From the NCBI GenBank assembly GCA_964621385.1, contig CAZUMF010000001.1, positions 1 to 54,466 on the forward strand: a DNA stretch of 54,466 nt, given 5' to 3'. Below, one piece after another: positions 13,901-53,891 of this stretch. The notes under the pieces are model-generated. The model saw only the letters and a program-made list of their open reading frames with translations, searched no databases and was not told where the DNA came from. The position numbers and the translations under genes were made by a program. The DNA comes from an uncultured Desulfohalobiaceae bacterium (lineage in GTDB: Bacteria; Desulfobacterota; Desulfovibrionia; Desulfovibrionales; Desulfothermaceae). Position 1 is the first letter of the stretch. Each line of letters opens with the position of its first letter.

Positions 13901-14236
13901 CTATTTCCGATTATGCTGTAAAAGTGAACCATAATGCCGCTTGAAACTGGTGGAAGAATATTTACTCATTTTCCAGTCCGGGACTTTGCACTTTTCACAA
14001 GGTTTCGTAAACCACTTATTTCTGAGCCACCGAGCACCACGGCTGTTTTTTGAATTGTTGACCATGAATTGCATGTTGCAATGAGTGGTGATCCAGGCCT
14101 GTTCTCCTTTCTTTTCGATAGTTCTGATTCCATGAAGGACACCTTTCCGAGAAGGCCAGAGCTTGATTTTGTCAATAAGGCTGAAGAGCTCGACCCTCTT
14201 TCTGTAATACCTCTTGGCTGGTTCACATTTAACCAT
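13901..14236 (-). CDS. pylSn: PylSn, stand-alone N-terminal (tRNA-Pyl-binding) domain of pyrrolysyl-tRNA synthetase
   Basis: LWPSRKGVLHGIRTIEKKGEQAWITTHCNMQFMVNNSKNSRGARWLRNKWFTKPCEKCKVPDW aligns with the N-terminal domain of archaeal PylS (LWMSRTGTIHKIKHH...[28 protein letters not shown]). The ATG at 14236 overlaps the pylD stop (ATGGTTAA). The track ORF start at 14413 is an out-of-context extension. Ends in TAG. Confidence 0.8.
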   Translation of the reverse strand: MVKCEPAKRYYRKRVELFSLIDKIKLWPSRKGVLHGIRTIEKKGEQAWITTHCNMQFMVNNSKNSRGARWLRNKWFTKPCEKCKVPDWKMSKYSSTSFKRHYGSLLQHNRK

Positions 14237-32568: not shown

Positions 32569-32621
32569 GAGAACAATTTCTTGATCCCAAACAGGACACC
32601 CAGTACTCTTACTTCTACCGT

Positions 32622-36034: not shown

Positions 36035-36769
36035 TTAGATTGGGGAATGCCCATTTCCATTCTTCTTGGCAATCACCAGGGTCCAATAGTCCGGAGGCAT
36101 CATCTCCAGATCACGAACATTGGTGATAATTTGCTCCTTGTCTCGACCGCACCTGGATATGGCCATGCTGTATTCCAAAAATCCGGTTTCCTCCATGGCA
36201 TCATTGATATCTTTGGTGTTCCGATAGGCTTTGAACAACACCACATTCTCGACACACTGCGAAATATTTCGCAATCTCTCTCCACCAAGAGCCCCGGAGG
36301 TGATGACGAGGGACTCCTCGTCCTCAACCAGAACCGTATTCAAACGTGCCGCCACCGCCTGTGGAGTACAAATTCCCGGAATGGTTCTGATCCTGGCTAA
36401 TGGATCCAAGTCCTGCAACTGCTTCAATATATACCCATAGGTAGAATACGTCATTGGGTCCCCTAAGGTCAAGAAGGCGACATCCAGGCCTTGGTCCATT
36501 TCGCGCTTCAAGGCCCTGGCATTTTCCCGCCAGGCTGGGTACGTCACTCGCTTGTCTTTGGTCATGGGAAAATCAAGGAGTCTGACTTCAGTGTCTCCAT
36601 CAATGTATGGTTTGGCAATGGTCACCGCCAGGCTGTGCTGATTTTTACTCGAAGAAGCCGCGAAAATGACGTGAACGATCTCTAACGCCTTGACGGCCTT
36701 CAAGGTGATCAGCTCAGGATCACCCGGCCCCACCCCTATGCCGTAAAGGGTGCCCTTTTTCATGTTCAT
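36035..36769 (-). CDS. cbiL: precorrin-2 / cobalt-factor II C20-methyltransferase
   Basis: Tetrapyrrole methylase signature GTLYGIGVGPGDPELITLKA and FLTLGDPMTYSTY. The start is taken at the MNMKKG ATG after gaggtga. The track ORF extension to 36943 runs into the terminator and riboswitch. Confidence 0.85.
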   Translation of the reverse strand: MNMKKGTLYGIGVGPGDPELITLKAVKALEIVHVIFAASSSKNQHSLAVTIAKPYIDGDTEVRLLDFPMTKDKRVTYPAWRENARALKREMDQGLDVAFLTLGDPMTYSTYGYILKQLQDLDPLARIRTIPGICTPQAVAARLNTVLVEDEESLVITSGALGGERLRNISQCVENVVLFKAYRNTKDINDAMEETGFLEYSMAISRCGRDKEQIITNVRDLEMMPPDYWTLVIAKKNGNGHSPI

Positions 36770-36842
36770 AATCACCTCGTCCTGAATTAAACATTGACCG
36801 CAGTTACGACAATATTTGATCTTCCCTTTTCCTATCACCCCC

Positions 36843-36880
36843 AAAAAAAAACCGGATCGAATAGCGCTTATTCGATCCGG
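36843..36880 (-). terminator. intrinsic terminator (riboswitch expression platform)
   Basis: On the minus strand, CCGGATCGAATA-loop-TATTCGATCCGG (12-bp perfect stem) is followed by T9. It lies between the riboswitch and cbiL. Confidence 0.75.
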
Positions 36881-36944
36881 GGATTTCCCTTTTTTATCCA
36901 CCATGATCAAATGAGTTTCCAACCTCGGGAAACCATCATCCATG

Positions 36945-38018: not shown

Positions 38019-38729
38019 TCAGATACCCAAATAGGCTTTCCGGACATGTTGATTATCCATTAGGCCATGCGTTTCACCCTCAAGCGCCATCTTCCCAACT
38101 TCCAACACATACCCATATTCAGCCAATTGAAGAGCCAATTCAGCATTTTGTTCCACAAGAATAATCGACACACCTCTTTTGTTTATCTCAACAAGAATAT
38201 CCGCTATTTCTTTGACCACAAGCGGGGCCAGACCCAGAGAGGGCTCATCCAGCATGAGGAGTTGTGGATCTGACATTAAAGCCCGCCCAATGGCCAGCAT
38301 CTGCTGCTCACCGCCACTCATGGTGTGGGCCACCTGGCTGGTTCGTTCGGCAAGTCTTGGAAAATGATGAAACACTTTCTCCATATCCCGTTGCACGCCT
38401 TTTTTCTCTGATCGGGTGAAAGCGCCGAGTAAGAGATTCTCCCTTACAGTAAGCTCCGGGAAAACCCGTCTGCCCTCTGGGACATGGGCGATGCCAAGCT
38501 TGAGAACCCTGTCAGGAGATAAGCCTGTTATCGGTTGGCCCTTATAGACAATTTTCCCATGACTGGGACGAACCAGACCGGAAATAGCACGCAATGTCGT
38601 GCTCTTGCCGGCCCCGTTCGATCCGATGATTGTGATCATTTGCCTGTCTTTCAGCTGCAAGGAAATTCCCTGAAGCGCTGCAACCATCTGATAATGGACA
38701 ACAATGTCCTGAAGTTCTAGTAGTGGCAT
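38019..38729 (-). CDS. livF: branched-chain-amino-acid-type ABC transporter ATP-binding protein (LivF-like)
   Basis: 236-aa ORF with Walker A GSNGAGKSTT, signature MSGGEQQMLAIGRAL and Walker B LLMLDEPS. Confidence 0.9.
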   Translation of the reverse strand: MPLLELQDIVVHYQMVAALQGISLQLKDRQMITIIGSNGAGKSTTLRAISGLVRPSHGKIVYKGQPITGLSPDRVLKLGIAHVPEGRRVFPELTVRENLLLGAFTRSEKKGVQRDMEKVFHHFPRLAERTSQVAHTMSGGEQQMLAIGRALMSDPQLLMLDEPSLGLAPLVVKEIADILVEINKRGVSIILVEQNAELALQLAEYGYVLEVGKMALEGETHGLMDNQHVRKAYLGI

Positions 38730-38730
38730 G

Positions 38731-39483
38731 TCATTTTACCCCGAGATACGCTTCAATGACCTGATCATTGGCCTGAATCTCCTCAGGCGATCCATTTGCC
38801 AGGAGCTTGCCGAAATTGAGCACGAAAATTTTCTCGCACAGTCCCATGACTGCCTTCATGTCATGTTCGACAAGAAAAATGGTCGTCCCATTGTTCTGAA
38901 TTTTCTTGACCAAATCCATCATGTGAGAGGTCTCCTCCGGATTCATCCCGGCAAAAGGCTCATCCAAGAGAAGTAGCTCTGGTTCTGCAGCCAGAGCTAC
39001 GGCTACAGCCAGTGTCCGTTGCGATCCCAAGGGCAGATTGAGGGCCAACTGGTCCTTTCTCTTGGTTAAGCCCATAAATTCTATAATATCTAAGGTTTTG
39101 GCCTCGGCTTCCTCTTGTTTTTTTCTATCCGTTCGAAACAAGGCTGAAAAAAAATTCGATCTGGCTTTGATATGGCAACCCATCAAGACATTTTCAAATA
39201 CAGTGAATTCTTGAAACAATGTCGTTTCCTGAAATGTTCGAACCAATCGTTTTTCAGCTATGGCGCTGGGCCCTAAACCGGTGATTTCCTCGCCGAGGAA
39301 CAAAATCTTTCCCTGATTGGGACTATGAAAACCAGTGATCGTCTTGAACAATACACTTTTCCCTGCTCCGTTCGGTCCGATCAGTCCCTGTATCATTCCT
39401 TGATCTACAGAAAAATTCACATCATGAACAGCAATCAATCCTCCAAATCGTTTGAACAATCCCTGAACTTGCAGTAAGGTCAT
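38731..39483 (-). CDS. livG: ABC transporter ATP-binding protein (LivG-like)
   Basis: 250-aa ORF with Walker A GPNGAGKS, KRFGGLIAVHDVNF and LLLLDEPFAGMNPEE. Confidence 0.9.
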   Translation of the reverse strand: MTLLQVQGLFKRFGGLIAVHDVNFSVDQGMIQGLIGPNGAGKSVLFKTITGFHSPNQGKILFLGEEITGLGPSAIAEKRLVRTFQETTLFQEFTVFENVLMGCHIKARSNFFSALFRTDRKKQEEAEAKTLDIIEFMGLTKRKDQLALNLPLGSQRTLAVAVALAAEPELLLLDEPFAGMNPEETSHMMDLVKKIQNNGTTIFLVEHDMKAVMGLCEKIFVLNFGKLLANGSPEEIQANDQVIEAYLGVK

Positions 39484-39546
39484 CCCTCGCTCCTCAATGT
39501 AGGCAATATCTCATCAACAATGTCCCGCGTTTCGAATACCTGGGAC

Positions 39547-40530
39547 TCATGTTCCTTCCTTTTCCTCAACTTCGGACGGACGGTGCAGAAGGCTGGATAT
39601 CTTAGCGGGCAGGCTTTCCAGTCCGTTGGGCAGGAACATGATGGTCATGATTAAAATGACTCCGTAGATGAGGGGTCGGAGTTCCTCGAATCCCCGGAAC
39701 CAGGTATTAAGCAAGGACAGGACAACGACTCCGATGATCGGTCCCTGAAAGGTCTGTATGCCACCGACGATCACCCAGATTAGTACGTAAATCATAATCC
39801 CCACGCCGAATTGGTGCGGATTGAGCGATCCCAGATAGTGAACGAACAGGACCCCGGCTATCCCGACGAAAAAAGAAGCCAGCACAAAAGCTGTTGTCTT
39901 GTAGCGCCAGGTATTGACACCTATCGATTCAGCCAGGACATCATTCCAATGAATCGAATGCAGGGTCAGCCCGATTCGCGAATTTTCTATCCGGTACAGG
40001 ATGCACAAGGAGATGGTCACAATGACAATGGTTAGAAAATAATAGGGAATCGGCTCCCAGATCTCAATGTTTCCCAGAATCGGCAGCGTGATATGGGGGG
40101 ATGGGATCAGGCTGATACCCTTGGGGCCTCCAAGGTCTTTAAAATAGACCCAGCACAAGCGAATAGCCTCACCGGCTGCAAATGAACCGATCAAGAAATA
40201 GAATCCCTTCATCCGAAACAATGAAAAACTGAGAAGAAAGGCCAAAAAACCCGTCAGCATCCCAGCTAAAGGCATGCTCAGCCAGAACGAGATTCCCAGT
40301 TCTTTGGTGATCAGGCCGCTTGCATAGGCACCCACTCCCATCAGAACGACGTGGATCAGCGAGAACTCACCGGTCAGGGTCATAAGCCTGTAGCTGACCA
40401 CGACCAGAATATTGATCAAAAGAAAAATCATGAAATCCTGGTATTGGTATGGCAGGAAAAAAGGTAGGGCCGAAAGAAATGCAAAGAGGCCCAACAACCC
40501 CAGTATGTATGAGAATCGATTCATAAACAT
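39547..40530 (-). CDS. livM: ABC transporter permease (LivM-like)
   Basis: 327-aa polytopic membrane ORF within the Liv-type operon. Confidence 0.85.
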   Translation of the reverse strand: MFMNRFSYILGLLGLFAFLSALPFFLPYQYQDFMIFLLINILVVVSYRLMTLTGEFSLIHVVLMGVGAYASGLITKELGISFWLSMPLAGMLTGFLAFLLSFSLFRMKGFYFLIGSFAAGEAIRLCWVYFKDLGGPKGISLIPSPHITLPILGNIEIWEPIPYYFLTIVIVTISLCILYRIENSRIGLTLHSIHWNDVLAESIGVNTWRYKTTAFVLASFFVGIAGVLFVHYLGSLNPHQFGVGIMIYVLIWVIVGGIQTFQGPIIGVVVLSLLNTWFRGFEELRPLIYGVILIMTIMFLPNGLESLPAKISSLLHRPSEVEEKEGT

Positions 40531-41417
40531 TATTCCGTCTTCCTGGCTCCTAAAATTCCTGTTGGTTTGGCCACTAAAACCAGCAGCATAATCACAAGGC
40601 CCAAGATTGTGGCCAAACTGCCGGAGAAATAGGTACTTATAAACGTGTAGAAAAAGGCGTACAGCACTGCGGCCATAACCGCTCCTGTCAGACTGCCCAG
40701 CCCGCCCACCAAAGTCACGATCAAGGCGGTGATAATGACAGCGTGGCCCATATAGGGCTCCACCCGGGTCAGGGGTGCCATCATGGCCCCGGCTGCTCCG
40801 GCTGAAAAGGCACTGATGATCATGGCCAGGATGGAAATCTGGTTGATATTGATTCCTTGAAGCTCTGCTGCCTCTCGATCCTGGGCTACGGCCCTGAGGG
40901 CCCAGCCCAGTTTGGTCTTGGTCAGTAAAAAACCGATCAGAAAAAGCAAGACAGCTGACACCACAAGGGCCAGGAGGCGTTGGGCCGATACGGTCACTCC
41001 GCTCACGATCTCTATCGTCCCCCGAACCGATGGGGGGATATGCTTCATAAGACCAAGCCCCCCGATTTCCACGGCCAGAACCTGGAGTATAAACAAGGCC
41101 CCGATGGAATTGATCAGACCTCCAAGCGGATTGTCACGCATGGGGCGGAACAGTCCCAGTTCCATGATCAAGCCGATAAGAGTGACGATGAGGCAGGCCG
41201 CTATTCCAGCCAGGAAAAACGGCCAGCCGGATACGGAATACAGGTACCAAACCCCGTAAGCCCCAGCCATGTATAATTCTCCATGGGCCAGGTTGATGAC
41301 GCCCATAACCCCGAAGATGAGCACCAAGCCCACGGCTACCAGGGCAAAAAAACTACTGGCAACTAAGCTGTTGACGCAGGTCTGCAAAAAGACTTCCACG
41401 GTCCAGATCCTCCTCAA
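40530..41417 (-). CDS. livH: ABC transporter permease (LivH-like)
   Basis: 295-aa polytopic membrane ORF with VINLAHGELYMAGAY typical of LivH. The exact start is uncertain. Confidence 0.85.
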   Translation of the reverse strand: MRRIWTVEVFLQTCVNSLVASSFFALVAVGLVLIFGVMGVINLAHGELYMAGAYGVWYLYSVSGWPFFLAGIAACLIVTLIGLIMELGLFRPMRDNPLGGLINSIGALFILQVLAVEIGGLGLMKHIPPSVRGTIEIVSGVTVSAQRLLALVVSAVLLFLIGFLLTKTKLGWALRAVAQDREAAELQGININQISILAMIISAFSAGAAGAMMAPLTRVEPYMGHAVIITALIVTLVGGLGSLTGAVMAAVLYAFFYTFISTYFSGSLATILGLVIMLLVLVAKPTGILGARKTE

Positions 41418-41462
41418 AAAGAGACCAGGAGTTCCTCCTCCCGGTCTCTTGTCTTGTCAAGG

Positions 41463-42740
41463 CTATTTCTGATAGTACATGAGGTTCATTTTTTCCTGAT
41501 GCTTGATGTAGACATCCTTGTGCTTGGCCCACCAATCCGGGATGCTTCTGTATTCCATGATCTTGGCCTTCCCGTCGTTGATGACCACAACCGGCCAGTT
41601 GCCCACCAGGGCATTGTCGATCCCCCAGAGTTCCTTACCCCACCATTTTGCCTTTCCAAAGGCGTGAGGGGCTTTACCACCGGCTTTCATGGCCTTGAAG
41701 ACATCCATGGATTCGATGCTGCCTGCCTGTTGTGCACCCGCCATCCAGAGGTCCATGATAGATGCGTACTCCCAGGCCACAGCCGACCATGTTCCTGGGT
41801 GCCGCTTGACGAACTCGGCATAAAACTTATTGGGATTTCTGAAGTTGATCTGAGGTTCATTGAGGGCCGGGTCATCGAAGTCCGGAAACTGAAAGATCGT
41901 GCCTTCCATGAATTCCTTGCTCGTTTTTTCAATGATCTCGGGATAATTGTCATAGGTGCAGGAAATGATCTTACCCTTGAAACCCTTATGATAGGCCTGA
42001 ACCGAAATCAAATTGACGAAATCGGCATAGGCGGTGTCTAAGCAGAGAATATCAGGGTCTTTGGCCAGTAGTGAGGTCACCACCGGGGCAAAGTCCGTCG
42101 TGGAGATATCGAAAATGTTCTCCTTGATGACTTCCATCCCGGACACTTCGAAGGCGGCCCGATAGGTGGCGATTGAAGGGTTGCCCAGGGCATCGTCCTG
42201 GGCACACATGGCCACGGTCTTCAAGTTTGGAAAATTCTCCGACAACCACTCTACTCCGGTGACGTTGTAAATCGGGTGCACCTCGCAAGGAGCCACATGG
42301 TAGGGAGCATCCGGATTCAAATCACTGGGCAGCAAGGTGGTGGTCAGCATCCGACTCTTTGTGGCGAAACGCTGCACTGCCGGCCAGGTGCTTCCCCCCA
42401 GCATCATGATCATCTTGACATCGTTTTCCATGACCAGCTTCTTGGCACCACGAAGCGCCTTATCCGGCTGGTATTCATTGTCATAGGAGACAAATTCGAC
42501 TAAGTAATTGGTGTCACCCACCTTGATGCCGCCTTTAGCGTTGATCCATTCCGCCCAGATCTCACAGCCGTACAATCCGGGCAGACCCCAGGCCGCCACC
42601 TCACCGGTCAGCGGAGCCAGAAAACCGATCTTGACTGTTTCTGTTTTTCCACTGCCAAAAGAGACACCCGGCAGCCCAATCCCGGCTAGGGCCGCCCCAG
42701 CGGCACTCGCCTGCAAAAATTGTCTTCGTGTAATACCCAT
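41463..42740 (-). CDS. Liv/AmiC-type periplasmic substrate-binding protein with a twin-arginine signal
   Basis: 425-aa ORF. The N-terminus MGITRRQFLQASAAGAALAGIG is a Tat-type motif. Type-I periplasmic binding fold pattern (VKIGFLAPLTGEVAAWG). Ends in TAG, followed by 1 codon and then TGA. Confidence 0.85.
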   Translation of the reverse strand: MGITRRQFLQASAAGAALAGIGLPGVSFGSGKTETVKIGFLAPLTGEVAAWGLPGLYGCEIWAEWINAKGGIKVGDTNYLVEFVSYDNEYQPDKALRGAKKLVMENDVKMIMMLGGSTWPAVQRFATKSRMLTTTLLPSDLNPDAPYHVAPCEVHPIYNVTGVEWLSENFPNLKTVAMCAQDDALGNPSIATYRAAFEVSGMEVIKENIFDISTTDFAPVVTSLLAKDPDILCLDTAYADFVNLISVQAYHKGFKGKIISCTYDNYPEIIEKTSKEFMEGTIFQFPDFDDPALNEPQINFRNPNKFYAEFVKRHPGTWSAVAWEYASIMDLWMAGAQQAGSIESMDVFKAMKAGGKAPHAFGKAKWWGKELWGIDNALVGNWPVVVINDGKAKIMEYRSIPDWWAKHKDVYIKHQEKMNLMYYQK

Positions 42741-42971
42741 AATACCCCCCGAATAAAGATTTGTTCTTCCATTTTGTTGGGGAATGCTCAGGAAAATGTT
42801 CGTTTCCAGAAGTCAGCGCAACTCTGATCAACCGAAACAAAAACAGTGCATCCGACGGTGGGGGAGCGGAACCAAGCGCAGCAAACCGCTCCCTTCACAG
42901 CTCCAATACTCAAAACACCTCCTCAGCGCTTTGATTCAAGGAACCGTTCCACCGCCTAAAAACCATCAGCC

Positions 42972-44450
42972 TCAAGCCGCTGCCTCCCGTTCTTTGGCCT
43001 CGGCCTCCTCGACAATCGACCTCAATTTCGACAGGACTTCAGCCGGCAGTTCAGTGACCTTGTGTTTTTCCAGAATCTCTCGGGCCCTCTCACCGGCCAC
43101 CTCGGCCAGATCCTTGCCTCCGCGTTTCTGCCACGCACCCCGCATCCTGCGGTCAATCAACTTCACTTTTGACTGCTCCGTTCCCATATACTGTCTGGTG
43201 TGTTTCTGGGCCAGAAAGTCCTTACCCGAGCCTACCTTCTTGATCAGTTCAACCGCCAAGGTGTCATCTGACACATTGACTCCTTGAACCACTCGCTTGA
43301 CCATGGCGGCAATCTCATTATCCATGACGAGCTGGGCAAAACTGAAGGTCACCCCCAGTTCCAGCATGCCCATCCCATAGATCAGATTCGCCCCGGCCAA
43401 GGCAGGCAACAGGGAAGTGATGGTTTTTTCGTGTCCGGCCTGAGCATCGGACACTTTGCTGTCTGCCTAATTCCCCGCCACATAACTTGGCAACCGGTAG
43501 TAACGGGCCAGTCCCGCCACACCCGCACTGAGCATGCCCAGCTCCGGAGCGCCGACTGGAGCCGTGGCATAGGTCAGGTCAAAGGTTGTTGTGGAACTGC
43601 CGTAAATCAGCGGGGCCCCTTTGGCCGTCAGCTGACTCAAGACGACACCAGCCAAGACCTCAGCATTGTGCGTGACCAGAGTACCGGCCACAGAAACCGG
43701 TGAGGAACCCCCTGACATGGCCATGGACAATACATTGCAAGGCATCCCGGCCCGGGCGCATTCGATGATGATCTCCGCATTGGCAGCGTGGAGCTCCAAG
43801 GGACTTGTCGGACAGATAAGGGCCGAAACGAGCGGTCTTTCCCTGAGCTTATCAGGGCCTCCCACAATCTCGGCCGCCATTTCAAAGAACTTTTTCGCCC
43901 CTTCACCGCCCGAGAGATCGATGTGCTGGCAATGCTTGCAGGTGTTGGTCAAGAAAGCCTCGGCCTCATTGAGGTCCGTGGCCAAATCCTTATCCCTGGC
44001 CACGACAGCACTGGAATACACATCAACATGTTCCAGGGCATCACAGGCCAGGGCTGTCCAGCCCACGTCCTTTTTGTTGGATTCTCGAAGTTCACCGTTA
44101 TACGGGTCCACCATCATTACTCCGGCCCCGAAGCTGGTAAAGCCCACCCGGCCCCCTTGCAGGGTCACGTCGTATTCAGGGGTTCTGCCTGCCATCAAAA
44201 TAGTGCTGGGGGCTGAAGAAATGGCATCCTCCACCAGGTAAGACGGAATCTTCACATGTTTGTTCTCCCAGTCAACAATCGCTCCACCACCATCGAATAT
44301 TTTCAGGGCTTCTTCACTATAAACCCCGACCCCGTAATTCTGAAGAACATCCAGGGTCGCCAGATGGATTTCGTTGAGCTGGTCGTCCGTGAACATGCTC
44401 AGACCCCAACCTTCCTGAGTGCTTATGCCAGGTTGAAGTCCTCGAATCAT
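42972..44450 (-). CDS. mttB: trimethylamine:corrinoid methyltransferase MttB (copy 2) with an in-frame UAG (pyrrolysine) at 43467..43469
   Basis: Track ORFs 43467..44528 and 42972..43454 share a frame and are separated only by TAG. The start is taken at MIRGLQ (44450), preceded by aaaggaggtg-N5. The joined product is 492 aa. Terminates in TGA. Confidence 0.9.
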
Positions 44451-44585
44451 TTTCACACCTCCTTTTCTTTTGAGATTGACTGTTTTGTCTTGTAATGTTT
44501 GTTCCTGATCTGTCATCACCTCCTTCATGAGTCAGGTTGTGCCAGCATACAGCCAAGCAAGAGACTCAGGAATCGAATGTTCCTT

Positions 44586-45230
44586 TTACTTGATGAGTTC
44601 TTTGGCCTTGGGCACCGCATCATTTGCATCTTCTGCATAGCAGTCCGCGCCGATCTTGTCGGCCCAGTCCTGAGTTGCTGCCGCACCGCCGATCATGGTT
44701 TTGACTTTGTCTCGTATCCCGGCCTTTTTCAGTTCTTCCTCAACCTGTTTCTGACCAATCATGGTCGTGGTCATCAGAGCCGAGGAGCCGACAATGTCGG
44801 CGTTTAACTCCTTGGCCTTCTCCACAAAGACATTGATCGGCACATCCCTGCCGAGATCCGTCACTTCGAAACCATAGACCCGAAGGATGGTGCACAGAAT
44901 CCGCTTGCCGATATCGTGTATGTCTCCTTCGACCGTTCCGATCACGGCTCTGGCAAGGGGTTCGACAACCTCGTCCTTGGGTATGTGGGGCTCTAAGATC
45001 TCGATGGCCTTGGTCATGGCCTCTGCTGCCACCAGAACCCCGGGAAGTGGAATTTCTTCGTTGGCAAAACCTTCCCCGACTTCCGTCATCCCTGCAGAAA
45101 AGCCTTCATTGATGATTTCAAGTGGGCTTATGCCTTCTGCAAGGACCTGGTTGGCCACTGCTGCAGCCATGTCTTCGTCACCATCCAACAAAGCCTGTTT
45201 GCTTTTTTTCAACAAATCTTCTTTGCTCAC
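44586..45230 (-). CDS. mttC: corrinoid protein (MttC-like by position)
   Basis: 214-aa ORF with a cap domain and a B12-binding domain carrying GDIHDIGKRI. It lies directly upstream of mttB copy 2. The symbol is assigned from adjacency only. Confidence 0.85.
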   Translation of the reverse strand: MSKEDLLKKSKQALLDGDEDMAAAVANQVLAEGISPLEIINEGFSAGMTEVGEGFANEEIPLPGVLVAAEAMTKAIEILEPHIPKDEVVEPLARAVIGTVEGDIHDIGKRILCTILRVYGFEVTDLGRDVPINVFVEKAKELNADIVGSSALMTTTMIGQKQVEEELKKAGIRDKVKTMIGGAAATQDWADKIGADCYAEDANDAVPKAKELIK

Positions 45231-45342
45231 GTCGTCACCTCCTTTCTTTCCAGTATTCTCATCAGCAAATTCAATGAAATATCCAAATAATGAAACTCGA
45301 CCACCTCCTTTTGTATTAACCCCAAGAGTTAGATCAGGACTT

Positions 45343-45783
45343 TCAAAAAACTGTTTTTTCCGGTTCTACGAAACATTTCCGGATGACGTCCGGAACTTCC
45401 CATAATAACGAGGGCCAGGTATGCCGGGTTGGCTGCATGAGATGAAGAGCCTGCGTTAGAGGTTCAATCCGATCAAGAACTCGTTTAGCAAAGAAATATC
45501 CTTTTTTTCCAAAAATGACCGTCTCTGTGCTCTGCCCTGTGAGAGAGGGATCAAGAATTTTCAAGGCATTATTCATGGCTGTAACGGCCATCAGGACCGT
45601 TGGAAGAGCCGTTTTTTCCTGGGCAAACAAGTCAATGATCTCCAACATACCCGGGACAAGCCCGCGGTCGATGAACTGTACTGGATCAAGTCCATGTTCG
45701 ATGGTCATTCTGGCTGCGACAACCGCCTTATCGGTATCTCCTTCATAAACAGCCGCTGCTGCCTTCTCCACAAGTCTTTCCAT
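45343..45783 (-). CDS. corrinoid-protein cap (B12-binding_2) domain only; truncated or degenerate corrinoid protein
   Basis: 146-aa ORF. The first ~90 aa resemble the helical cap of the neighbouring corrinoid proteins (GLDPVQFIDRGLVPGMLEIIDLF...LPTVLMAVTAM). No DxHxxG or Rossmann part follows in any frame. Confidence 0.5.
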   Translation of the reverse strand: MERLVEKAAAAVYEGDTDKAVVAARMTIEHGLDPVQFIDRGLVPGMLEIIDLFAQEKTALPTVLMAVTAMNNALKILDPSLTGQSTETVIFGKKGYFFAKRVLDRIEPLTQALHLMQPTRHTWPSLLWEVPDVIRKCFVEPEKTVF

Positions 45784-45842
45784 ACCTGATTGTTATCCCG
45801 TCTGAGCCTTTGGATATCTGGTCCAAAGGCCCAGACAAAATA

Positions 45843-47240
45843 TTAGAGTTTGAATTCAAAGCCGATGCCTTCCATGGTCTTAATAGCCTGATCCAAAACA
45901 TCGAAGTGTTCTTTCGTGGGCATCAATGACTTCACGTCATAACACTCCTGAAAGGTCTTGCCCTTGGGGGCCTCTCTGAACTTGGTCTCGTAGAGGCTGA
46001 CCAGTTTGTCCAGCATGGAGTTTACTTTATCTGTTTCAACCCCGGCCACTGCTCTGGCGGCATAAGCCATAAAACGGGCTTCAATGGCTGTCGTCTTGTC
46101 GCGGGCAACACCCTTGGCTGAGGCACAGCCGCTCATTATTTCCATGCCGCTGGCCGTATCCGTGATGGCCTGGGCTGCTGCCTCCAAAAGGCACATCTCA
46201 GTGCAGGGTCCGGCAGAAGTGTAGTACTGATTTCCTAAAAGCAGATGTGTATGCTTATCAACGGCCCGGCAGGCATGTCCGGCGACCATCAACGGCTCCC
46301 TGGCCGTTGTATTGCCCCAGCGCACATGAATAGGACCGTCCAGATGCCAGTCGGCGCCGACCATGATGAATGCGGCGAGGTGGGTGGCCACGTTCACGAT
46401 TGAGGTCTCCTCGACCCCACCGGCCCAGCCACCGATAATCGGCATCTGTTCGCTCATGATGATGTTGCCTGCCAGTTTGTAATGGGCCGTAAAAGCGAGC
46501 GCGTTGATGTCAATCTTGAGTTCATTCAACTGGCTCACCTCGTGGCTGTCACACGGTCTCATGCCCTCTGGGAAATCGGCGGCGATCACTCCTGCGGCAG
46601 TCAGAGAAGTTTCGCTCCCCTACATGGCCATGCCGGGCCGACCGGCCCGGGTCATTGCAGCCCGAATCTGGGAGACCTCGCCTTTGACAGCGGCTATTTC
46701 CCATGGAGATCCGGGTTTGGGCTCTCTCCCGTTGATGGTGGCCAAGACCCCGTTAACGATGGTATCCACCAGGGGCTCCCGGGCAAAAGCTTCATGCATG
46801 GCGATGAAGCAGTCCTCGGAAACAGGCGCTCCGGTGGGTCCACCTTGGCACAGGGGTGGTATTGGGCTGTCGAACCTTCTGGGCGCCAACCGCCGTGCAT
46901 CACGACCCTCACCAAGGGTCAATTCTTTGGGGGCGCCGGCAACGGCCAGCAGGACCTCCTCTTCGGTGTACTTGATGATCCTGCCTGTATCCATGCAGTA
47001 GACACCCATCTCTACAAGCATCTCCAGACCGGCCTGAAACAGGCGATCAAGCATGTCCTCATCAGTGGGGATGATCTTGGTCCGGTCGAATTGCAGTTTG
47101 TACTTCTTTTTCAACTTGTTGGCGGTTTGGAACGTCACCTTTTGATCCCATTCCTTTTCGTCCATCCGTGGTCCGGTGCGTGCTCGATCATAGGTCTCGA
47201 ACACGCCCACTTTGTCTCTGAAGCGAGTAAAGCCCATCAT
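45843..47240 (-). CDS. mtmB: monomethylamine:corrinoid methyltransferase MtmB with an in-frame UAG (pyrrolysine) at 46620..46622
   Basis: Track ORFs 46620..47240 and 45843..46589 share a frame and are separated only by TAG. RAGRPGMAM-O-GSETSLTAAG and DSHEVSQLNELKID, HLDGPIHVRWG, GPCTEMCLLEAAAQAITDTASG and GKTFQECYDVK match my recollection of Methanosarcina MtmB. The joined product is 465 aa. Terminates in TAA. Confidence 0.9.
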
Positions 47241-47250
47241 TCACCTCCTT

Positions 47251-47892
47251 TTATTTACTGATCAATTCCGTAATGAGTTCCACTCCGGCGGCGGCGTTTT
47301 CTCCCCAGCCATCCCCGCCGATCATGTCCACCCAGTCCTGAGTTGTCGGGGCCCCGCCAAAGACGCACTTGAATCTGTCCCGCAGACCGCGTTCCTTCAG
47401 GGCATCGATGATGTCCCTCTGTCCCGGCATGGTCGTCGTCATCAGGGCCGATCCTGTGATACAATCCACATCGTTGTCCACGGCCGCATCGATCACTTGA
47501 TCCGCAGGCACATCCCGCCCCAGATCGATGGCATCGTATCCATTGGCCTGCAGGAGAATGGTGAAAATACCCTTGCCGATATCGTGGATATCACCCTCCA
47601 CCGTATGGACCACGACCTTGCCTTTGGCTGAATATCCACCCTTGATTTGCGCCGCCAGGACATCCACCGCCGCTGTGAAGGCTTCGGCCGACAGGACAAT
47701 CTGCGGCACATAGATCTCGGCCCGGTCGAATCGGTCGCTGATTTCCTTCATGGCCGCGGAAAGTCCGTTTTCTATGCACTCAAGGGGATCAAGTCCTTGG
47801 GCCAGTGCCTCGTTCGCCGCCGCAACGGCTGCATCTGTGTCCATATCCAAGACACAACTCTTCAAACGCTCGAACATTTCTTGTGAACTCAT
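47251..47892 (-). CDS. mtmC: corrinoid protein (MtmC-like by position)
   Basis: 213-aa ORF with a cap domain and a B12-binding domain carrying GDIHDIGKGI. It lies 10 nt upstream of mtmB. The symbol is assigned from adjacency only. Confidence 0.85.
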   Translation of the reverse strand: MSSQEMFERLKSCVLDMDTDAAVAAANEALAQGLDPLECIENGLSAAMKEISDRFDRAEIYVPQIVLSAEAFTAAVDVLAAQIKGGYSAKGKVVVHTVEGDIHDIGKGIFTILLQANGYDAIDLGRDVPADQVIDAAVDNDVDCITGSALMTTTMPGQRDIIDALKERGLRDRFKCVFGGAPTTQDWVDMIGGDGWGENAAAGVELITELISK

Positions 47893-47947
47893 TTCCCTCT
47901 CACCTCCTTATAGAATTCGAGATGTTGTTGAAACAAATACTTCCATT

Positions 47948-48655
47948 TCAAGCACCCAGGTACGCTTTCTTGACCTCCTCATTTTCTCTCAAGTCCTTGG
48001 CTTCACCTTCCAAGACAATGCTGCCAGTCTCAAAAACATAGCCTTTCTCAGCCAAAGCCAAAGCGAGACGGGCATTTTGCTCCACCAGGACAATGGTCCT
48101 GCCCTCTGCATGGATGCTTCTGATGATTTTCGCTATTTCAAAGCACAAAAGTGGCGACAATCCCAGTGATGGTTCATCCAGGATAAGTAATTTCGGGTTG
48201 GACATCAGAGCCCGACCCATGGCCAGCATCTGCTGCTCGCCACCGCTCATGGTCCCGGCTGGTTGCTTCGTTCGATCTTTCAAGACCGGAAAATGATGAA
48301 AGACATTCTCGTAGTCACGGCTCAAGTTCTGAGCCCCTTTTCGCAGGAAGGCGCCCATCTCCAAATTTTCCATGACGGTCATCTCAGGAAACACCCTTCT
48401 GTTTTCAGGAACTTGAGCGATACCAATCTTGTTGATTTTTTCAGGCGGATGTTTGTCGATCCTCGTGCCTTCAAACCAGATTTCCCCTGAAGAGGGGTGA
48501 TTCAGTCCTGAAATGGCCCGTAAAGTTGTAGATTTTCCTGCGCCGTTGGAACCGATAAGTGTGACGATCTGTCCTTCTTCAACGTCGATGGTGATGTTTC
48601 CAATCGCCTGTACTTTCTGATAACAGACTGTAATCTCTTTCAGTTGGAGCATCAT
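47948..48655 (-). CDS. livF: ABC transporter ATP-binding protein (LivF-like, second system)
   Basis: 235-aa ORF with GSNGAGKSTT, MSGGEQQMLAMGRAL and LLILDEPS. Confidence 0.9.
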   Translation of the reverse strand: MMLQLKEITVCYQKVQAIGNITIDVEEGQIVTLIGSNGAGKSTTLRAISGLNHPSSGEIWFEGTRIDKHPPEKINKIGIAQVPENRRVFPEMTVMENLEMGAFLRKGAQNLSRDYENVFHHFPVLKDRTKQPAGTMSGGEQQMLAMGRALMSNPKLLILDEPSLGLSPLLCFEIAKIIRSIHAEGRTIVLVEQNARLALALAEKGYVFETGSIVLEGEAKDLRENEEVKKAYLGA

Positions 48656-48739
48656 GGCGGTGTCCTTATTCTTGATGGTTCAAATCCAACCTTCAGCGCA
48701 GAAGCAAGCAGGAAGCATTGCAGCAATGAGGATCGTGCA

Positions 48740-49561
48740 TCACCTCGCCTGTTCGCCGATGAAGCCTTCTTCCCCGCTCAACAAAGCCACAACCTCTTCC
48801 CCGCCCAAGTAAGCTTCAATCACCTCAGGATTATTTTGAACCGCCTCAGGCACCCCTTCAGCCAGTTTTTTGCCAAAGCTCAGCACGCTGACGTTATCAC
48901 AAAGCCCCATAACCACTTTCATATCATGTTCCACCAACAAGATCGTGACCTGCCATTCATCCCGCACCCGATTGATCAGATCCGTCATGTGTCTGGTCTC
49001 AATTGGATTCATTCCTGCTGTTGGCTCATCAATCATGAGCAGTTTTGGTTTCGTAGCCAGAGCAACGGCCAGACCCAAGGATCTTTGATGCCCGTGTGGA
49101 AGGTTAATCGAAAGTTCGTCCTTGTATTGATTCAGTCCCAGGAGGTCGATGATTTGATGGACACTCTCCTCTTCGTCTTTTCTGTGCCACTGGTCTATTC
49201 CAAAGAGTATCTGAAGAAAATTTTTGTCAACATGAAGATGCTGGGCCAGTTGAATATTTTTAAAGACAGAGAACTCTTGAAACAGAGCATTTCTCTGAAA
49301 CGTCCTGATAACCCGTTTTTTGGCAATCTTGCTTGTCGAAAGACCCGATATGAGCTCGTCTTGAAACCTTATTTCCCCGCTTGTCGGGGCGTAAAAACCG
49401 CTGATGAGATTGAACAGCGTTGTCTTTCCAGAACCATTCGGGCCGATGATGCCCCGAATTTCACCTTCGTCGATTTCCAGATCCAGATCCTTGATAGCGG
49501 CGAGTCCTCCGAAATACTTCGTCAGGGATTTGACGGCAAAGAAATTCATTTTCCTCTCCAT
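48740..49561 (-). CDS. livG: ABC transporter ATP-binding protein (LivG-like, second system)
   Basis: GPNGSGKTT, TKYFGGLAAIKDLD and LLMIDEPTAGMNPIE. The start is taken at MERKMNFF (49561; an alternative is 49549). The track start at 49651 overlaps the usp gene. Confidence 0.85.
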   Translation of the reverse strand: MERKMNFFAVKSLTKYFGGLAAIKDLDLEIDEGEIRGIIGPNGSGKTTLFNLISGFYAPTSGEIRFQDELISGLSTSKIAKKRVIRTFQRNALFQEFSVFKNIQLAQHLHVDKNFLQILFGIDQWHRKDEEESVHQIIDLLGLNQYKDELSINLPHGHQRSLGLAVALATKPKLLMIDEPTAGMNPIETRHMTDLINRVRDEWQVTILLVEHDMKVVMGLCDNVSVLSFGKKLAEGVPEAVQNNPEVIEAYLGGEEVVALLSGEEGFIGEQAR

Positions 49562-49575
49562 TGTAACTGTAAGAA

Positions 49576-50025
49576 CTAAACGTCCATGGAAGTACTTCCT
49601 AAAAAGACATCTGGGGCCTCTTCTGCCGCCTTGACAGCAAGGACCGGGCACTGGGCTTGGAGAATCACATCCTGGGCCAAGGAGCCAAGCAGCAATTTGC
49701 CAAGCTTCGATTTTTTCTCAATACCAACGATGATCTCGTCAATATCCTTTTCTCGGGCGAAGAGGACAATATCCTCCCCTGGCGGGTATCCCCTGATGAG
49801 CAAGTGGGAAGAACAGGGAATGCCCTCCTCTTCAAACTCTTGGACCACTTCAGACAGGGCCTTCTCCGCATCTTCCTTGGATGGCACATCCTTCTCGCTG
49901 ATCGTCGTATCGGCCGAGGTCGCAACCAGCACCTCCGCCTTGAAAGCCCTGGCGTGGACCCTGGCCAGTTCGAGGGCTTTCCTGGATGACTTGGAGCGGT
50001 GGTTGAAAGCCACAAGAATCTTCAT
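49576..50025 (-). CDS. universal stress protein (UspA family)
   Basis: 149-aa ORF with a USP pattern (MKILVAFNHRSKSS...IIVGIEKKSKLGKLLLGSLAQDVILQAQCPVLAV). Ends in TAG. Confidence 0.8.
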   Translation of the reverse strand: MKILVAFNHRSKSSRKALELARVHARAFKAEVLVATSADTTISEKDVPSKEDAEKALSEVVQEFEEEGIPCSSHLLIRGYPPGEDIVLFAREKDIDEIIVGIEKKSKLGKLLLGSLAQDVILQAQCPVLAVKAAEEAPDVFLGSTSMDV

Positions 50026-50057
50026 ACTTGTGTCCCTTGCTGTTATGGCTTATGATT

Positions 50058-51026
50058 TTATTCAGAGCCTGCCGGTTTCAAGAGGGTTCTGACATTTTTC
50101 CTGAATTTTAGGATCAGGCTCTCCAACCCACCTGGCATGAAGATCAAAGTCAGGATTAATATGACGCCAAAGAGCAAAGGACGCCATTCCTGCAGGGGCC
50201 TGGAGACCTCAAAGACAACCGTCATGACGGTGACCCCCAGAATCGGACCCCAAAAGGTGGCCGATCCCCCGACCACCACCCAGATGATGAGATAGACCAT
50301 GGTGTTGACCTCGAAATTATGGGGATCTATAGCTTGAAGCCTGTGCGCTAGCAAGGAGCCGGCTATTCCGGCAAAGAAAGCTCCGATGACCACGGCGTAA
50401 ATCCTGTAATTGGTTACGTTGATGCCGATGCTTTTGGCCAGATCTTCATCATCATGGATGCCTTTGAAGGCGTCGCCTATGCGCGACCGGTCGACTCGAA
50501 ACATGACATACAGGCAGATCAAGGTCACACACAGTGTTAAAAAGTAGTAGGGCATGGCAAAAAAGAAATCTATCTCGTACATCTCGGGCAGAGGAATTCC
50601 GATCATCCCCCTGGCCCCACCAAAAGGGTACCGGACCTTGACCCAGGTAAGACGCAAAAACTCACCGATGGCAAAGGAGCCGATCAAAAAGCCGAAGACT
50701 TTTGTCCGATGCAGTGGAATCATGAAAACAAACCCGACCACTCCTGCTGTGATACCGGAAACAGGCAGGCATAACCAAAAAGGCCAGCCCAGGAATTTGG
50801 CCGCTAAGGCGCTGGCATAGGCGCCTGATCCCATAAAGACGACATGGAAGAGTGACCAGTCCCCGGTTGTGGCCACCAGGCGGTAGCTGACCACCAGAAT
50901 GACATTGATCAAATAAAGGATGACGATTTCCAAATGATATTCATGGATGAGAAAGGGCAGTACACCCAGCAAAGCCAGTAAAACGAACACCCCAGTCCCA
51001 TTGAAGAATGAATCTCTTTTAAGCAC
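50058..51026 (-). CDS. livM: ABC transporter permease (LivM-like, second system)
   Basis: 322-aa polytopic membrane ORF. Overlaps the upstream livH-like gene by 8 nt. Confidence 0.85.
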   Translation of the reverse strand: MLKRDSFFNGTGVFVLLALLGVLPFLIHEYHLEIVILYLINVILVVSYRLVATTGDWSLFHVVFMGSGAYASALAAKFLGWPFWLCLPVSGITAGVVGFVFMIPLHRTKVFGFLIGSFAIGEFLRLTWVKVRYPFGGARGMIGIPLPEMYEIDFFFAMPYYFLTLCVTLICLYVMFRVDRSRIGDAFKGIHDDEDLAKSIGINVTNYRIYAVVIGAFFAGIAGSLLAHRLQAIDPHNFEVNTMVYLIIWVVVGGSATFWGPILGVTVMTVVFEVSRPLQEWRPLLFGVILILTLIFMPGGLESLILKFRKNVRTLLKPAGSE

Positions 51027-51882
51027 GGCCCATCAGCCCCTTTGGTTTAAGGACTAAGACGATGACCATGACCCCGACCCCGGCCATGGTGCCAATGACG
51101 GCATCAAAAAAGGTGGTCGCAAATGTGTGAATAAAACCGAGAATAACGGCAGCCAGCATCGCCCCTTCAATACTCTCCATCCCCCCGACAATGACCACAA
51201 TAAAGGCTGTGATGATCACTGAATGCCCCATGTAGGGAGTCACGGCATGAATCGGAGACATGAGAGCCCCGGCCACACCGGCGAAACCACCGGCTATGGC
51301 CATGGCCAGGATGGTCATCTTGTCGATGCTGATTCCCTGCAAAGAGGCGGCTTCCGGGTCCTGGGCGCAGGCCCGCAGGGCCTTCCCCAATCTGGCTTTT
51401 CGAAGGAAGATCCAGAGGGCAGCGACCATGGCGAACGCACCCGGAATGACCAGGATTCTTTGCAAACCGATCTTCGCTCCCATGATGTTGGCTGTTTCCA
51501 TGAACGGCGTGGGGATGTACCGCATCAACCCCACGCCCCAGATCTGTCCCACGAGGACTTGCAAAACCAGGGTCAATCCGGCTGTGGCCATAAATCCGGC
51601 CAGGACGTTTCCCCGGGTGGGTTTGAAAATCGTCCGCTCAGTGACGACTCCCAGGGTCCCGACAATAAAAAAGGCTGCAATCACAGCCACTGGAAAGGGC
51701 AAGCCGCCTAAGGCATACAAGACATAGACCACATAGGCTCCCACCATGAAAAACTCACCGTGCGCGAAATTGGCCATCTGCATCACACCGAAGCCCAGGG
51801 CGAGTCCAACGGCGACAGACGCATCAATCCCGCTGGCCACGATGGAATTGGCTATGGTTTGGACAAGTGTCGCAGTATTCAT
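51019..51882 (-). CDS. livH: ABC transporter permease (LivH-like, second system)
   Basis: 287-aa polytopic membrane ORF with MQMANFAHGEFFMVGAY. Confidence 0.85.
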   Translation of the reverse strand: MNTATLVQTIANSIVASGIDASVAVGLALGFGVMQMANFAHGEFFMVGAYVVYVLYALGGLPFPVAVIAAFFIVGTLGVVTERTIFKPTRGNVLAGFMATAGLTLVLQVLVGQIWGVGLMRYIPTPFMETANIMGAKIGLQRILVIPGAFAMVAALWIFLRKARLGKALRACAQDPEAASLQGISIDKMTILAMAIAGGFAGVAGALMSPIHAVTPYMGHSVIITAFIVVIVGGMESIEGAMLAAVILGFIHTFATTFFDAVIGTMAGVGVMVIVLVLKPKGLMGRA

Positions 51883-51952
51883 CCGGTTGACTCCTTTGGC
51901 TGAACAAGCACTAGGGGGGCAACATCACTCGCCCCCCTGGACCGCATGGATT

Positions 51953-53251
51953 CTATCTTTGATCCCAGTACTGCTTTTTGTCCCTGACCACCTTGATGAT
52001 CTCATCCTTTCTTGCTGCAAACCAATCTTCGAAGCGGACCTGGGCCTGAATCCGTTTTGTGCCCTCTACGACTTGATTGATAGGTATTGGGGGTGATACC
52101 ATGTTGTCGATTCCCCACATCTCCTTCCCGGTCATAACCGCAGGTCCGAGAATGGTGGGGAATGATTTTTGGGATCGAAGTGCTTCAAGGATTTCATCGG
52201 GATCAAAGCTTCCCGCGAGCTGTGCCCCGTAGGCCCAGACCTTCAACATGATGACGTGGTCCCAATCAATCCCGGTAATGTGCCTGTGCACATCATCCGG
52301 AGCCCCGGGCCCGTAACGTTTTAGCCATCTTTTGATGAAATTATGTTGGAAGGATGGCTCGCCCCACCAGGGATCATCAAAGAGAGGGAAGCTATCCGTG
52401 GCCCCTTCCAGGTACTCCTCGGGAACCTTCTGGAGAACAGCCTCCACGTCACAGTAGTTCATTGAGATGATACCCTGATAGTCCTGCTGATAGAGCTGGG
52501 CAATAATCTGGGCCACAAAGGTTGGATAGCTCAGATTCAGACTGACCACATCCGGATTTTTGCTCAATATTGAGGTCACGACCGGAGCAAAGTCAGTGGT
52601 CTCAATGGCGAAATGCTTATCGTACACGACATCCCAGCCCATGGACTTGGCTGCTCCCACTTCCCAGGCCTGGCAGGTCTGCCCGATCGTATCGTCCTGC
52701 GAGGTCACCGCCCACCGTTTCAAATCCGGGTTTTCGAACTTGTGGAACCATGGACGCAGCATATCGATCCTGGGAGTGACGTCACCCCCGGCTATGCAGT
52801 ACGGCCTGTCCGGCTTGATATCTGTAGCAATAAGACTGGCGTAGATCACCTTTCGCTTGGTCAGGAAAGGATGCACCGCATCAGCAGGGTTCCCGCCGAT
52901 GGCGTTGATGAACTTGACGTTGTGGCGCATCACCAGCTGCCTCGCCCCTTGGAGGGCCTTACTGGCCACAGCTTCATCGTCAAAGGTGTGCAGCTCCAGA
53001 GGATAGCGCACCCCGTCCACAAGAAGTCCGCCCTCTGCATTCACCTTGTCGATGTACATCTCGACCCCGGTCAGTCCAGGGAGACCCCATCCCGCATCAG
53101 GACCGGACAATGCGGCCAAAAACCCGACGTGTACCGTCTCTCCCTGTTTCTCAGTTGCGAAAAGCGGTGAATGCAAAATGAAAAAACAAAGAACTGTCAG
53201 TATCAGGATGGCCCTTGGCGTTGAGCCATGCTTCCGAAAATTCTTTTCCAT
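51953..53251 (-). CDS. Liv/AmiC-type periplasmic substrate-binding protein (second system, Sec-type signal)
   Basis: The start is taken at MEKNFRKHG (53251), preceded by gggaggg-N8. Signal peptide AILILTVLCFFILHSPLFA. VHVGFLAALSGPDAGWG is typical of the type-I binding fold. Ends in TAG. Confidence 0.85.
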   Translation of the reverse strand: MEKNFRKHGSTPRAILILTVLCFFILHSPLFATEKQGETVHVGFLAALSGPDAGWGLPGLTGVEMYIDKVNAEGGLLVDGVRYPLELHTFDDEAVASKALQGARQLVMRHNVKFINAIGGNPADAVHPFLTKRKVIYASLIATDIKPDRPYCIAGGDVTPRIDMLRPWFHKFENPDLKRWAVTSQDDTIGQTCQAWEVGAAKSMGWDVVYDKHFAIETTDFAPVVTSILSKNPDVVSLNLSYPTFVAQIIAQLYQQDYQGIISMNYCDVEAVLQKVPEEYLEGATDSFPLFDDPWWGEPSFQHNFIKRWLKRYGPGAPDDVHRHITGIDWDHVIMLKVWAYGAQLAGSFDPDEILEALRSQKSFPTILGPAVMTGKEMWGIDNMVSPPIPINQVVEGTKRIQAQVRFEDWFAARKDEIIKVVRDKKQYWDQR

Positions 53252-53891
53252 GCTCGTATCCCTCCCTTTTGAAAATATTCCAGAAACAAGTCTGGAGCAA
53301 AAATCAGCCTGAGAAGAGTGCCATGTGTTACGATTTCCGAGCAAAAATTCTTCATCATGTCTTTAGAGTTGTTGTCAGATTCCGATTCTTTTCCTGAATG
53401 ACTCAGAGCCACTTCCCACCCAGAGGTTCATCACCGATTCCAACCTCCCGGGCCTCATTCTGTTTTTTTATTGTCGCCCTCCTTGTGTTTACCATGTCAT
53501 ATTCCTTCAAAGACAAGAGGTTGCTCGATGCTAAATAAAGTTTATAGTTACAAATACATTTCTTTTTTTAAAATGATATCATCATCGGGTCTATTTTTTT
53601 CGCATTTCAGGTCTATTTTGACCACTCTCGAAAACTCGCATGGGTTTGCTCTGCAGGAAGGGATGCATCATTGAACGGATTCTCCCTTTAGACCCGACAC
53701 TGTTTATTTTGTATTAACAGCCGTCATTCAGATAGAAGGGTTGAAAAAAATCAGGAGGCGTGGAGGTAGAGAATGAGGGATTCCCTGAACAAGCTAGCCT
53801 TCCATGGCCTGGACCTGAGCAGACTGGCCGTGGAAAACCTTCTCAAAAGATCAGGCAGGCCATTCACTTCTTGATCTGGCGGTTTTTCTTT

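Follow-up and report, generated by a model that had tools for sequence, protein, structure and literature searches.

The 54,466-nucleotide (nt) stretch analysed here, referred to below as the window, covers positions 1 to 54,466 of contig CAZUMF010000001.1 (assembly GCA_964621385.1) and contains two copies of mttB, the gene of trimethylamine:corrinoid Co-methyltransferase, each with an in-frame TAG codon. Judged from its sequence, the interval 44450..42972 (minus strand), which holds the second copy (mttB2), is most probably one gene, encoding a pyrrolysine (Pyl)-dependent trimethylamine:corrinoid methyltransferase of a Desulfobacterales-like bacterium, a reading to which a probability of about 0.88 was assigned. 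The gene is intact, its product belongs to the MttB family, the TAG occupies the Pyl column of that family, both the TAG and the frame downstream of it are conserved, and the gene of the corrinoid protein MttC is adjacent. The central finding leaves existing knowledge unchanged, the phenomenon having already been described for this bacterial group; it provides one more well-supported case in which sulfate-reducer-like Desulfobacterales have an expanded genetic code (UAG = pyrrolysine), and it lends support to the published view that these bacteria and methanogens are competitors for trimethylamine (TMA) in anoxic sediments.

Two open reading frames (ORFs), 43467..44528 and 42972..43454, share a frame on the minus strand, and the sole stop that intervenes between them is the TAG at 43467..43469. 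An earlier note on this DNA had described this arrangement, and both its coordinates and the peptide that it gave after the TAG are correct. Read from the ATG at 44450, mttB2 (42972..44450, minus strand) comprises 493 codons counting the terminal TGA (42972..42974), which gives a product of 492 residues including the predicted pyrrolysine at codon 328, and 164 codons stand 3' of the TAG. The chance that a random frame is open over 164 codons is about 4e-4 ((61/64)^164, our own arithmetic); this value, together with the retention of the TAG column in 18/18 related loci despite near-saturated synonymous sites, indicates that the open-frame pattern exceeds chance. The start and length given in the same note (ATG 44450, 492 residues, TAG as codon 328) were borne out as well. 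The ATG is preceded by the Shine-Dalgarno sequence AAAGGAGGTG (44456..44465, minus strand) with a 5-nt spacer (TGAAA), and in orthologues a AAAGGAGGTGA-like site precedes the same MIRGLQPG start. In eight orthologues from Desulfobacterales, the protein starts with M(I/Y)RGLQPGI behind an AAAGGAG-type ribosome-binding site, which reads AAAGGAGGTGA in seven of them and AAAGGAGAGGA in the eighth (locus L009). The public gene call on the contig (P0001, 327 amino acids, 100% identical) uses this start too. A longer start, ATG 44528, was rejected as unsupported, because the extension is not conserved, the in-frame sequence upstream of the orthologues is closed by stops, and the ATG 44450 start is conserved along with its ribosome-binding site. 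Standard gene callers cut mttB2 into products of 327 and 160 amino acids; the annotation of the contig could be corrected by joining these two calls, with a transl_except for Pyl at codon 328.

The read-through product matches the NCBIfam equivalog TIGR02369 (trimeth_pyl) over profile positions 1-469 of 469 with 728.9 bits, against a cutoff of 525, and it also matches the Pfam family PF06253 (MTTB) with 298.9 bits. In a PDB search, residues 8-485 were aligned with the MttB of Methanosarcina barkeri (7xcl/7xcm/7xcn; E = 1.8e-140 and 472 bits for 7xcl_A). A location of the UAG in the Pyl column of MttB had been set beforehand as a condition of the proposal, and residue X328, encoded by the TAG, aligns exactly with X334 of 7xcl_A, which is Pyl334. 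Moreover, the residues G108, M243, Y358, G366 and E219 correspond to Gly110, Met249, Tyr364, Gly372 and Glu225 of the M. barkeri enzyme, and all five are conserved. Gly110 and Tyr364 are fully conserved residues that activate pyrrolysine, Met249 moves and admits TMA, Gly372 and Thr111 contact the corrinoid, and Glu225 is the salt-bridge partner of MttC (PMC9842639). MtgB, a non-Pyl relative, reached 222 bits in the same PDB search and has Leu at the Pyl column. Assignment of mttB2 to the non-Pyl MttB superfamily (MtgB/MtcB/MtpB-like) was rejected on two grounds, the TAG at the column and the score above the TIGR02369 cutoff.

The comparative evidence was drawn from a scan of species-representative genomes, which yielded 18 related mttB loci. 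Eight of them come from metagenome-assembled genomes (MAGs) of Desulfobacterales, Desulfobacteraceae, Desulfobacula or Thermodesulfobacteriota and are 78-84% identical to mttB2; the other ten, at 61-69% identity, come from Firmicutes, Syntrophomonadaceae, Thermincola and Thermodesulfovibrionales. The Pyl column is TAG in every one of the 18, and approximately 156-173 open codons follow it in the 17 loci with long enough sequence. After the TAG, the proportion of nonsynonymous differences (pN) between mttB2 and its relatives is approximately 0.10-0.25 and that of synonymous differences (pS) approximately 0.6-0.87, values that are indistinguishable from those before the TAG; for the downstream segment of the closest orthologues, pN is approximately 0.10 and pS approximately 0.6-0.8. 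Where the ratio of nonsynonymous to synonymous substitution rates (dN/dS) could be computed, it was 0.06-0.08 downstream of the TAG and 0.03-0.13 upstream. This comparison shows that purifying selection on the 164 codons after the TAG is as strong as on those before it, so that the attribution of these codons to the gene, made in the earlier note, is upheld. The GTG at 43454, from which a separate downstream protein would have to start, is not a conserved start codon: its column holds GTT, ATT, CTG, CTT, GTA, CTC, TTG or ATA in relatives, and GTG only in L002, L003 and a paralogue in L001. No Shine-Dalgarno site precedes GTG 43454, and the four ADSK codons between it and the TAG are conserved family-wide, non-Pyl homologues included. 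These observations support translation of the downstream segment as part of one predicted MttB protein.

In the mechanism proposed for mttB2, an amber-suppressor Pyl-tRNA(CUA) would read the UAG at codon 328 in competition with the release factor, and pyrrolysine would thereby become an active-site residue of an enzyme with a TIM-barrel fold, its pyrroline imine binding and activating TMA. The methyl group would then go to the Co(I) corrinoid of MttC, encoded just upstream, and a second methyltransferase would pass it on, presumably to tetrahydrofolate for oxidation; MtaA/URO-D-like and MtrH-like genes are found in the window. No dedicated cis-acting insertion element would be needed, nor is one evident. 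The production of Pyl-tRNA by this organism, the substrate and the onward route of the methyl group are parts of this scheme that we infer. MttB variants O334A and O334K of Methanosarcina acetivorans cannot support growth on TMA (PMC12626013), which indicates that Pyl is catalytically required.

MttB homologues with a sense codon at the Pyl column also exist. Among approximately 150 fetched MttB matches and cluster members, 90 stop at this column and 30 read through it, with W in 13, H in 4, V in 3, S in 3, Q in 2, A in 2, L in 2 and N in 1. Close homologues of this kind, 45-62% identical, are P0004, P0014, P0022, P0024-P0027, P0030, P0032, P0033, P0067 and P0138. In L001 (JGI metagenome 3300032172), a real TGG (Trp) paralogue, with the codon at 3502..3504, has a TAG paralogue, mtbB and pylS at a distance of 3 kb. 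Since neither O334A nor O334K is active on TMA in Methanosarcina, the sense-codon homologues may use another substrate or be inactive.

The UAG of mttB2 coincides with a match to an Rfam family of putative Pyl insertion elements. The match to RF02510 (PYLIS_3, mttB; 43370..43469, minus strand) starts precisely on the UAG, with a score of 80.8 bits (gathering score, 38), and the Rfam PYLIS matches to mttB copy 1 (mttB1) and to both mtbB copies of the window likewise begin exactly at their TAGs. The RF02510 model comprises approximately 8 base pairs only, 4 of which are non-canonical in mttB2. In an RNAalifold analysis of 21 homologous 100-nt segments, only 4 invariant pairs were obtained with a covariation term of 0, and no covarying structure was found. 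A PYLIS-like 7-bp hairpin at 43454..43431, 12 nt after the UAG, was considered and rejected, as only 69% of its cells are paired and 89 of 500 shuffled sequences are as good. Because conserved or covarying pairing is lacking, the RF02510 match is best explained by conservation of the coding sequence and not of an RNA structure. This view agrees with the published position that targeted insertion of Pyl has no known mechanism, UAG being ambiguous between Pyl-tRNA and the release factor (PMC12626013).

Genes of the Pyl machinery itself, pylB, pylSn and a broken pylD, are present in the same window and were absent from the earlier note's account. The intact pylB (methylornithine synthase; 33461..34555, plus strand) scores 457.1 bits against TIGR03910 (cutoff 348.2), and its product is 56% identical to the PylB of locus L014. 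It stands apart from the other pyl genes, 19 kb from pylD and pylSn, right after genes of a MoxR-like AAA ATPase and a VWA-domain protein (31585..33425, plus strand), and this MoxR-VWA-pylB module recurs close to mttB in three loci of related MAGs, L002, L004 and L005. The pylSn gene (small subunit of pyrrolysyl-tRNA synthetase; 13901..14236, minus strand) is also intact, with 129.3 bits against TIGR03912 (cutoff 51.15) and a tblastn match. Directly 5' of it lies a pylD pseudogene (14229..14722, minus strand), of which two fragments remain; they lie in different frames and correspond to residues 52-109 and 173-277 of PylD of L022, which is intact and has 277 residues. The deletion of residues 1-51 and 110-172 has taken the N-terminus and the central NAD-binding part, and the fragments score 71.2 and 46.6 bits against TIGR03911, below the cutoff of 150. 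A search of JGI metagenome contigs for a 33-nt exact match to the deletion junction gave 0 matches, and a protein search with the C-terminal PylD fragment was uninformative, with 11 weak matches, of which not one exceeded 61% identity across half of the query. In L022, the closest pylSn relative, an intact pylD is followed by pylSn and then RamA; a Desulfobacteraceae MAG has the canonical order pylSc-(thioesterase)-pylB-pylC-pylD-pylSn; L014 carries the complete cassette pylT-pylSn-pylSc-pylB-pylC-pylD beside an mttB orthologue, and another tRNA-Pyl is found in L019. Because only pylB and pylSn are intact in the window and pylD is broken, the decoding of UAG as Pyl in this genome is a point that we infer, although strongly, from sequence evidence, and the broken pylD raises the question of how complete the Pyl machinery of this genome is.

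Several observations weigh against a functional Pyl-dependent mttB2. The genes pylT, pylSc and pylC were not found within the 54-kb window, in which no tRNA of any kind was found either, and the pylD beside pylSn is a deletion pseudogene. In the active site, Thr111 of the M. barkeri enzyme is replaced by Ala109; in the structure paper (PMC9842639), the roles detailed for the peptide bond between Gly110 and Thr111 involve the main chain, and Thr111 is also reported to form a hydrogen bond with the corrinoid. Moreover, UAG is ambiguous and not reassigned, since it terminates 6/42 genes: in a stop-codon survey of the window, covering 42 genes with family support or clear ORFs, the terminal stops were TGA in 22, TAA in 14 and TAG in 6. 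Back-up stops lie 1-22 codons past the six TAG-terminated genes; they were not used as evidence. In favour of the Pyl reading, an in-frame TAG occurred among the 42 genes only in five methylamine methyltransferase genes (mttB and mtbB twice each, and mtmB), all of which are otherwise intact. One alternative is that the UAG is now read only as a stop, mttB2 being a recently orphaned gene of a decaying Pyl system with a truncated, inactive product of 327 residues. The loss of PylD residues 1-51 and 110-172, the scatter of the pyl genes and the absence of pylT, pylSc and pylC from the window, further decay or rearrangement on the contig, seen in a truncated corrinoid-protein gene at 45343..45783, and the public gene callers, which stop at 327 amino acids, would all fit this explanation. 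However, it does not account well for five UAG-containing methyltransferase genes that are otherwise intact, for pylB and pylSn genes that are intact and above their equivalog cutoffs, or for a downstream frame of mttB2 that is constrained as much as the upstream one. The truncation at residue 327 would fall inside the TIM barrel (residues 82-395 of M. barkeri MttB; PMC9842639), and bacterial pyl genes can be split between loci, of which only the 54-kb window was viewed. An orphaned mttB2 is consequently considered quite improbable. An ongoing breakdown or rearrangement of this genome's Pyl system, during which the five UAG methyltransferase genes stay intact, is also unlikely; the pylD pseudogene and the lone pylB in its MoxR-VWA-pylB module, 19 kb away, would fit it. 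If this were true and no second pylD existed, the organism might rely on external pyrrolysine or an intermediate, or the contig might be a snapshot taken just after the loss of genetic-code expansion, and a later outcome may be seen in homologues with Trp in place of Pyl, for example the L001 paralogue with TGG.

Three further explanations were considered. According to one of them, mttB2 is two separate genes, a 327-residue protein ending at the TAG and a 160-residue protein starting from GTG 43454; the ORF list does give a GTG-initiated ORF of 160 amino acids at 42972..43454, and many database entries are split likewise. The family-wide conservation of ADSK between the TAG and the GTG, an internal start that is neither conserved nor preceded by a Shine-Dalgarno site, and the single continuous match of both parts to the MttB profile and structure make this very unlikely. 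A nonsense mutation in a pseudogene, or a one-base sequencing error, could have produced the TAG from a sense codon one base away, and some homologues have TGG (Trp) at this column; such an event would have to be reconciled with the recurrence of TAG at this column in every one of 18 independent assemblies, as well as in the paralogue mttB1, and with a downstream dN/dS of approximately 0.06-0.08, and it is extremely improbable. The pseudogene, two-gene and sequencing-error readings were therefore rejected on the TAG column, the selection on the downstream segment and the unconserved internal start. Finally, a standard near-cognate or suppressor tRNA might read the UAG and insert, for example, Gln, Tyr, Trp or Lys, as the W, H, V, S, Q, A, L or N found at the column in close homologues might suggest. 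The window holds no tRNA that could act in this way, the O334A and O334K variants of M. acetivorans MttB fail on TMA (PMC12626013), and the strict conservation of TAG in the clade argues that Pyl itself is required; this explanation is highly unlikely too.

The neighbourhood of mttB2 was examined as well. The earlier note had described mttB2 as the last gene of a tightly packed minus-strand series of liv-type transporter, mtmC, mtmB, cap fragment, mttC and mttB. The order was recovered, with livF before mtmC, and the first gaps are short (55, 10 and 59 nt), but the spacing widens toward mttB2 (112 and 135 nt), and mttB2 is not the last gene, as a substrate-binding protein (SBP) gene and livHMGF follow on the same strand after a gap of 231 nt. 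The cognate corrinoid protein gene mttC (44586..45230, minus strand) encodes a cap and a B12-binding domain (PF02607, PF02310) with the motif GDIHDIGK and scores 254.7 bits against TIGR02370 (cutoff 215.3). It lies immediately 5' of mttB in L002-L005, L007 and L009, that is, in all Desulfobacterales loci that reach upstream; L008 begins 14 nt before mttB. Profile matches identify an mtmC-like corrinoid-protein gene at 47251..47892 (minus strand). The truncated corrinoid-protein gene (45343..45783, minus strand) holds only a cap domain (PF02607, residues 5-77 of 146) and matches TIGR02370 at profile positions 2-83 of 197 only; it is without the B12-binding Rossmann domain, and there is no space for one before mttC. 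In the relatives L004 and L009, mtmCB is divergent from mttCB, and the fragment may for this reason mark the scar of an inversion or rearrangement. Downstream of mttB2, 38019..42740 (minus strand) is occupied by a Tat-signal SBP gene (42740..41463) and genes of a livH/M/G/F-like ATP-binding cassette (ABC) transporter (41417..38019). The order mttC-mttB-SBP-livHMGF is kept in four related Desulfobacterales MAGs (L002, L003, L007 and L008), and on this conservation the transporter is probably functionally linked to mttB. The linkage nominates the SBP-livHMGF set as a candidate for an uncharacterised methylamine uptake system. A second liv-type set (47948..53344), upstream of mtmC, is a candidate methylamine uptake system too. 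When 41300..48800 was scanned for promoters and terminators, 4 promoter-like and 10 terminator-like sites were obtained, compared with 3.9 and 8.1, respectively, expected from shuffled sequence. As these counts are not above the shuffled expectation, no operon boundaries could be defined from the scan.

The window as a whole is a methylamine-utilisation island. The first mttB copy (mttB1; 23445..24917, plus strand) is 53% identical to mttB2, and its in-frame TAG (24426..24428) falls in the same column. The two mtbB copies have their in-frame TAGs at 26239 and 30230, on which the PYLIS matches begin. The gene of the monomethylamine methyltransferase, mtmB (45843..47240, minus strand), has an in-frame TAG at 46620..46622 (codon 207) that aligns with position 202 (Pyl202) of M. 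barkeri MtmB1, and PF05369 is matched on both halves. Between the two mtbB copies lies a non-Pyl MttB-superfamily gene (26615..28051, plus strand; 478 amino acids, no in-frame stop), whose product reaches 360.6 bits against TIGR02369 (cutoff 525, not attained) and shares 30% identity with mttB2; its substrate is probably a quaternary amine or some other compound. In addition, the island holds corrinoid proteins, RamA/RACo-type activases, three MtaA/URO-D-like methyltransferases and one MtrH-like methyltransferase. Among the activase-related genes are a 559-residue RamA-like activase (12041..13720) and, separate from it, an unusually large fusion protein of 1146 residues (3187..6627, minus strand) with 2Fe-2S, RACo linker and middle, pyridine-nucleotide-disulphide oxidoreductase and RACo C-terminal ASKHA domains. 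Three ABC transporters are present in the window, two of them liv-type and one polyamine-type. A cobalamin riboswitch (RF00174; 36932..37161, minus strand, 98.6 bits) is located immediately 5' of a tetrapyrrole methylase gene (36035..36943). Two DUF2284 metal-binding genes and a CobW-like GTPase gene (966..1592, minus strand; 30894..31454, plus strand; 16100..17071, minus strand) gave weak matches to the NCBIfam selenoprotein models MbdU, ArsM_DUF2284_UU and CobW_rel_Se.

Compared with known systems, mttB2 shares with Rfam PYLIS_3 (RF02510) a match that begins at the UAG and exceeds the gathering score, but conserved secondary structure is not supported in the 21 homologous sequences. With the non-Pyl MttB superfamily, represented by the glycine betaine methyltransferase MtgB (PDB 2QNE/9YCE), it has in common the fold, PF06253 and an ADSK-like motif after the column; these proteins differ in that the Pyl column is a sense codon, which encodes Leu in MtgB, and in far lower scores. 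The likeness to M. barkeri MttB (7XCL/7XCM/7XCN) is much more extensive and includes the full-length alignment, the correspondence of Pyl334 to codon 328, the five active-site and partner residues and the adjacent corrinoid gene. Unlike the M. barkeri gene, mttB2 has a bacterial, Desulfobacterales-like host, has Ala in place of Thr111 and is followed by a liv-type ABC transporter. Moreover, the acceptor after MttC would not be coenzyme M, since the host is a non-methanogen, and is presumably tetrahydrofolate, as was proposed for related bacteria (PMC8318568). The closest parallels were described in marine Desulfobacterales MAGs, Deltaproteobacteria-bbl-16 and -31, which have a Pyl-MttB with the amber codon at 327 of 485, a pyl_corrinoid protein nearby and environmental transcripts that span the amber site (PMC8318568; Kivenson, 2021), and, earlier, in the delta-1 symbiont of Olavius algarvensis, for which a Pyl-containing MttB was reported (PMC1976440). 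The system described here is similar to them at the level of bacterial lineage, its nearest loci being the Desulfobacterales, Desulfobacteraceae and Desulfobacula MAGs at 78-84% identity, and in the amber codon near 327, the pyl_corrinoid protein nearby and the RamA-like activase genes. It is distinguished from the bbl MAGs by a contig GC content of 51%, compared with 41%, and from both the bbl and delta-1 systems by the presence, on one contig, of five UAG-containing methyltransferase genes and a degraded pylD beside pylSn.

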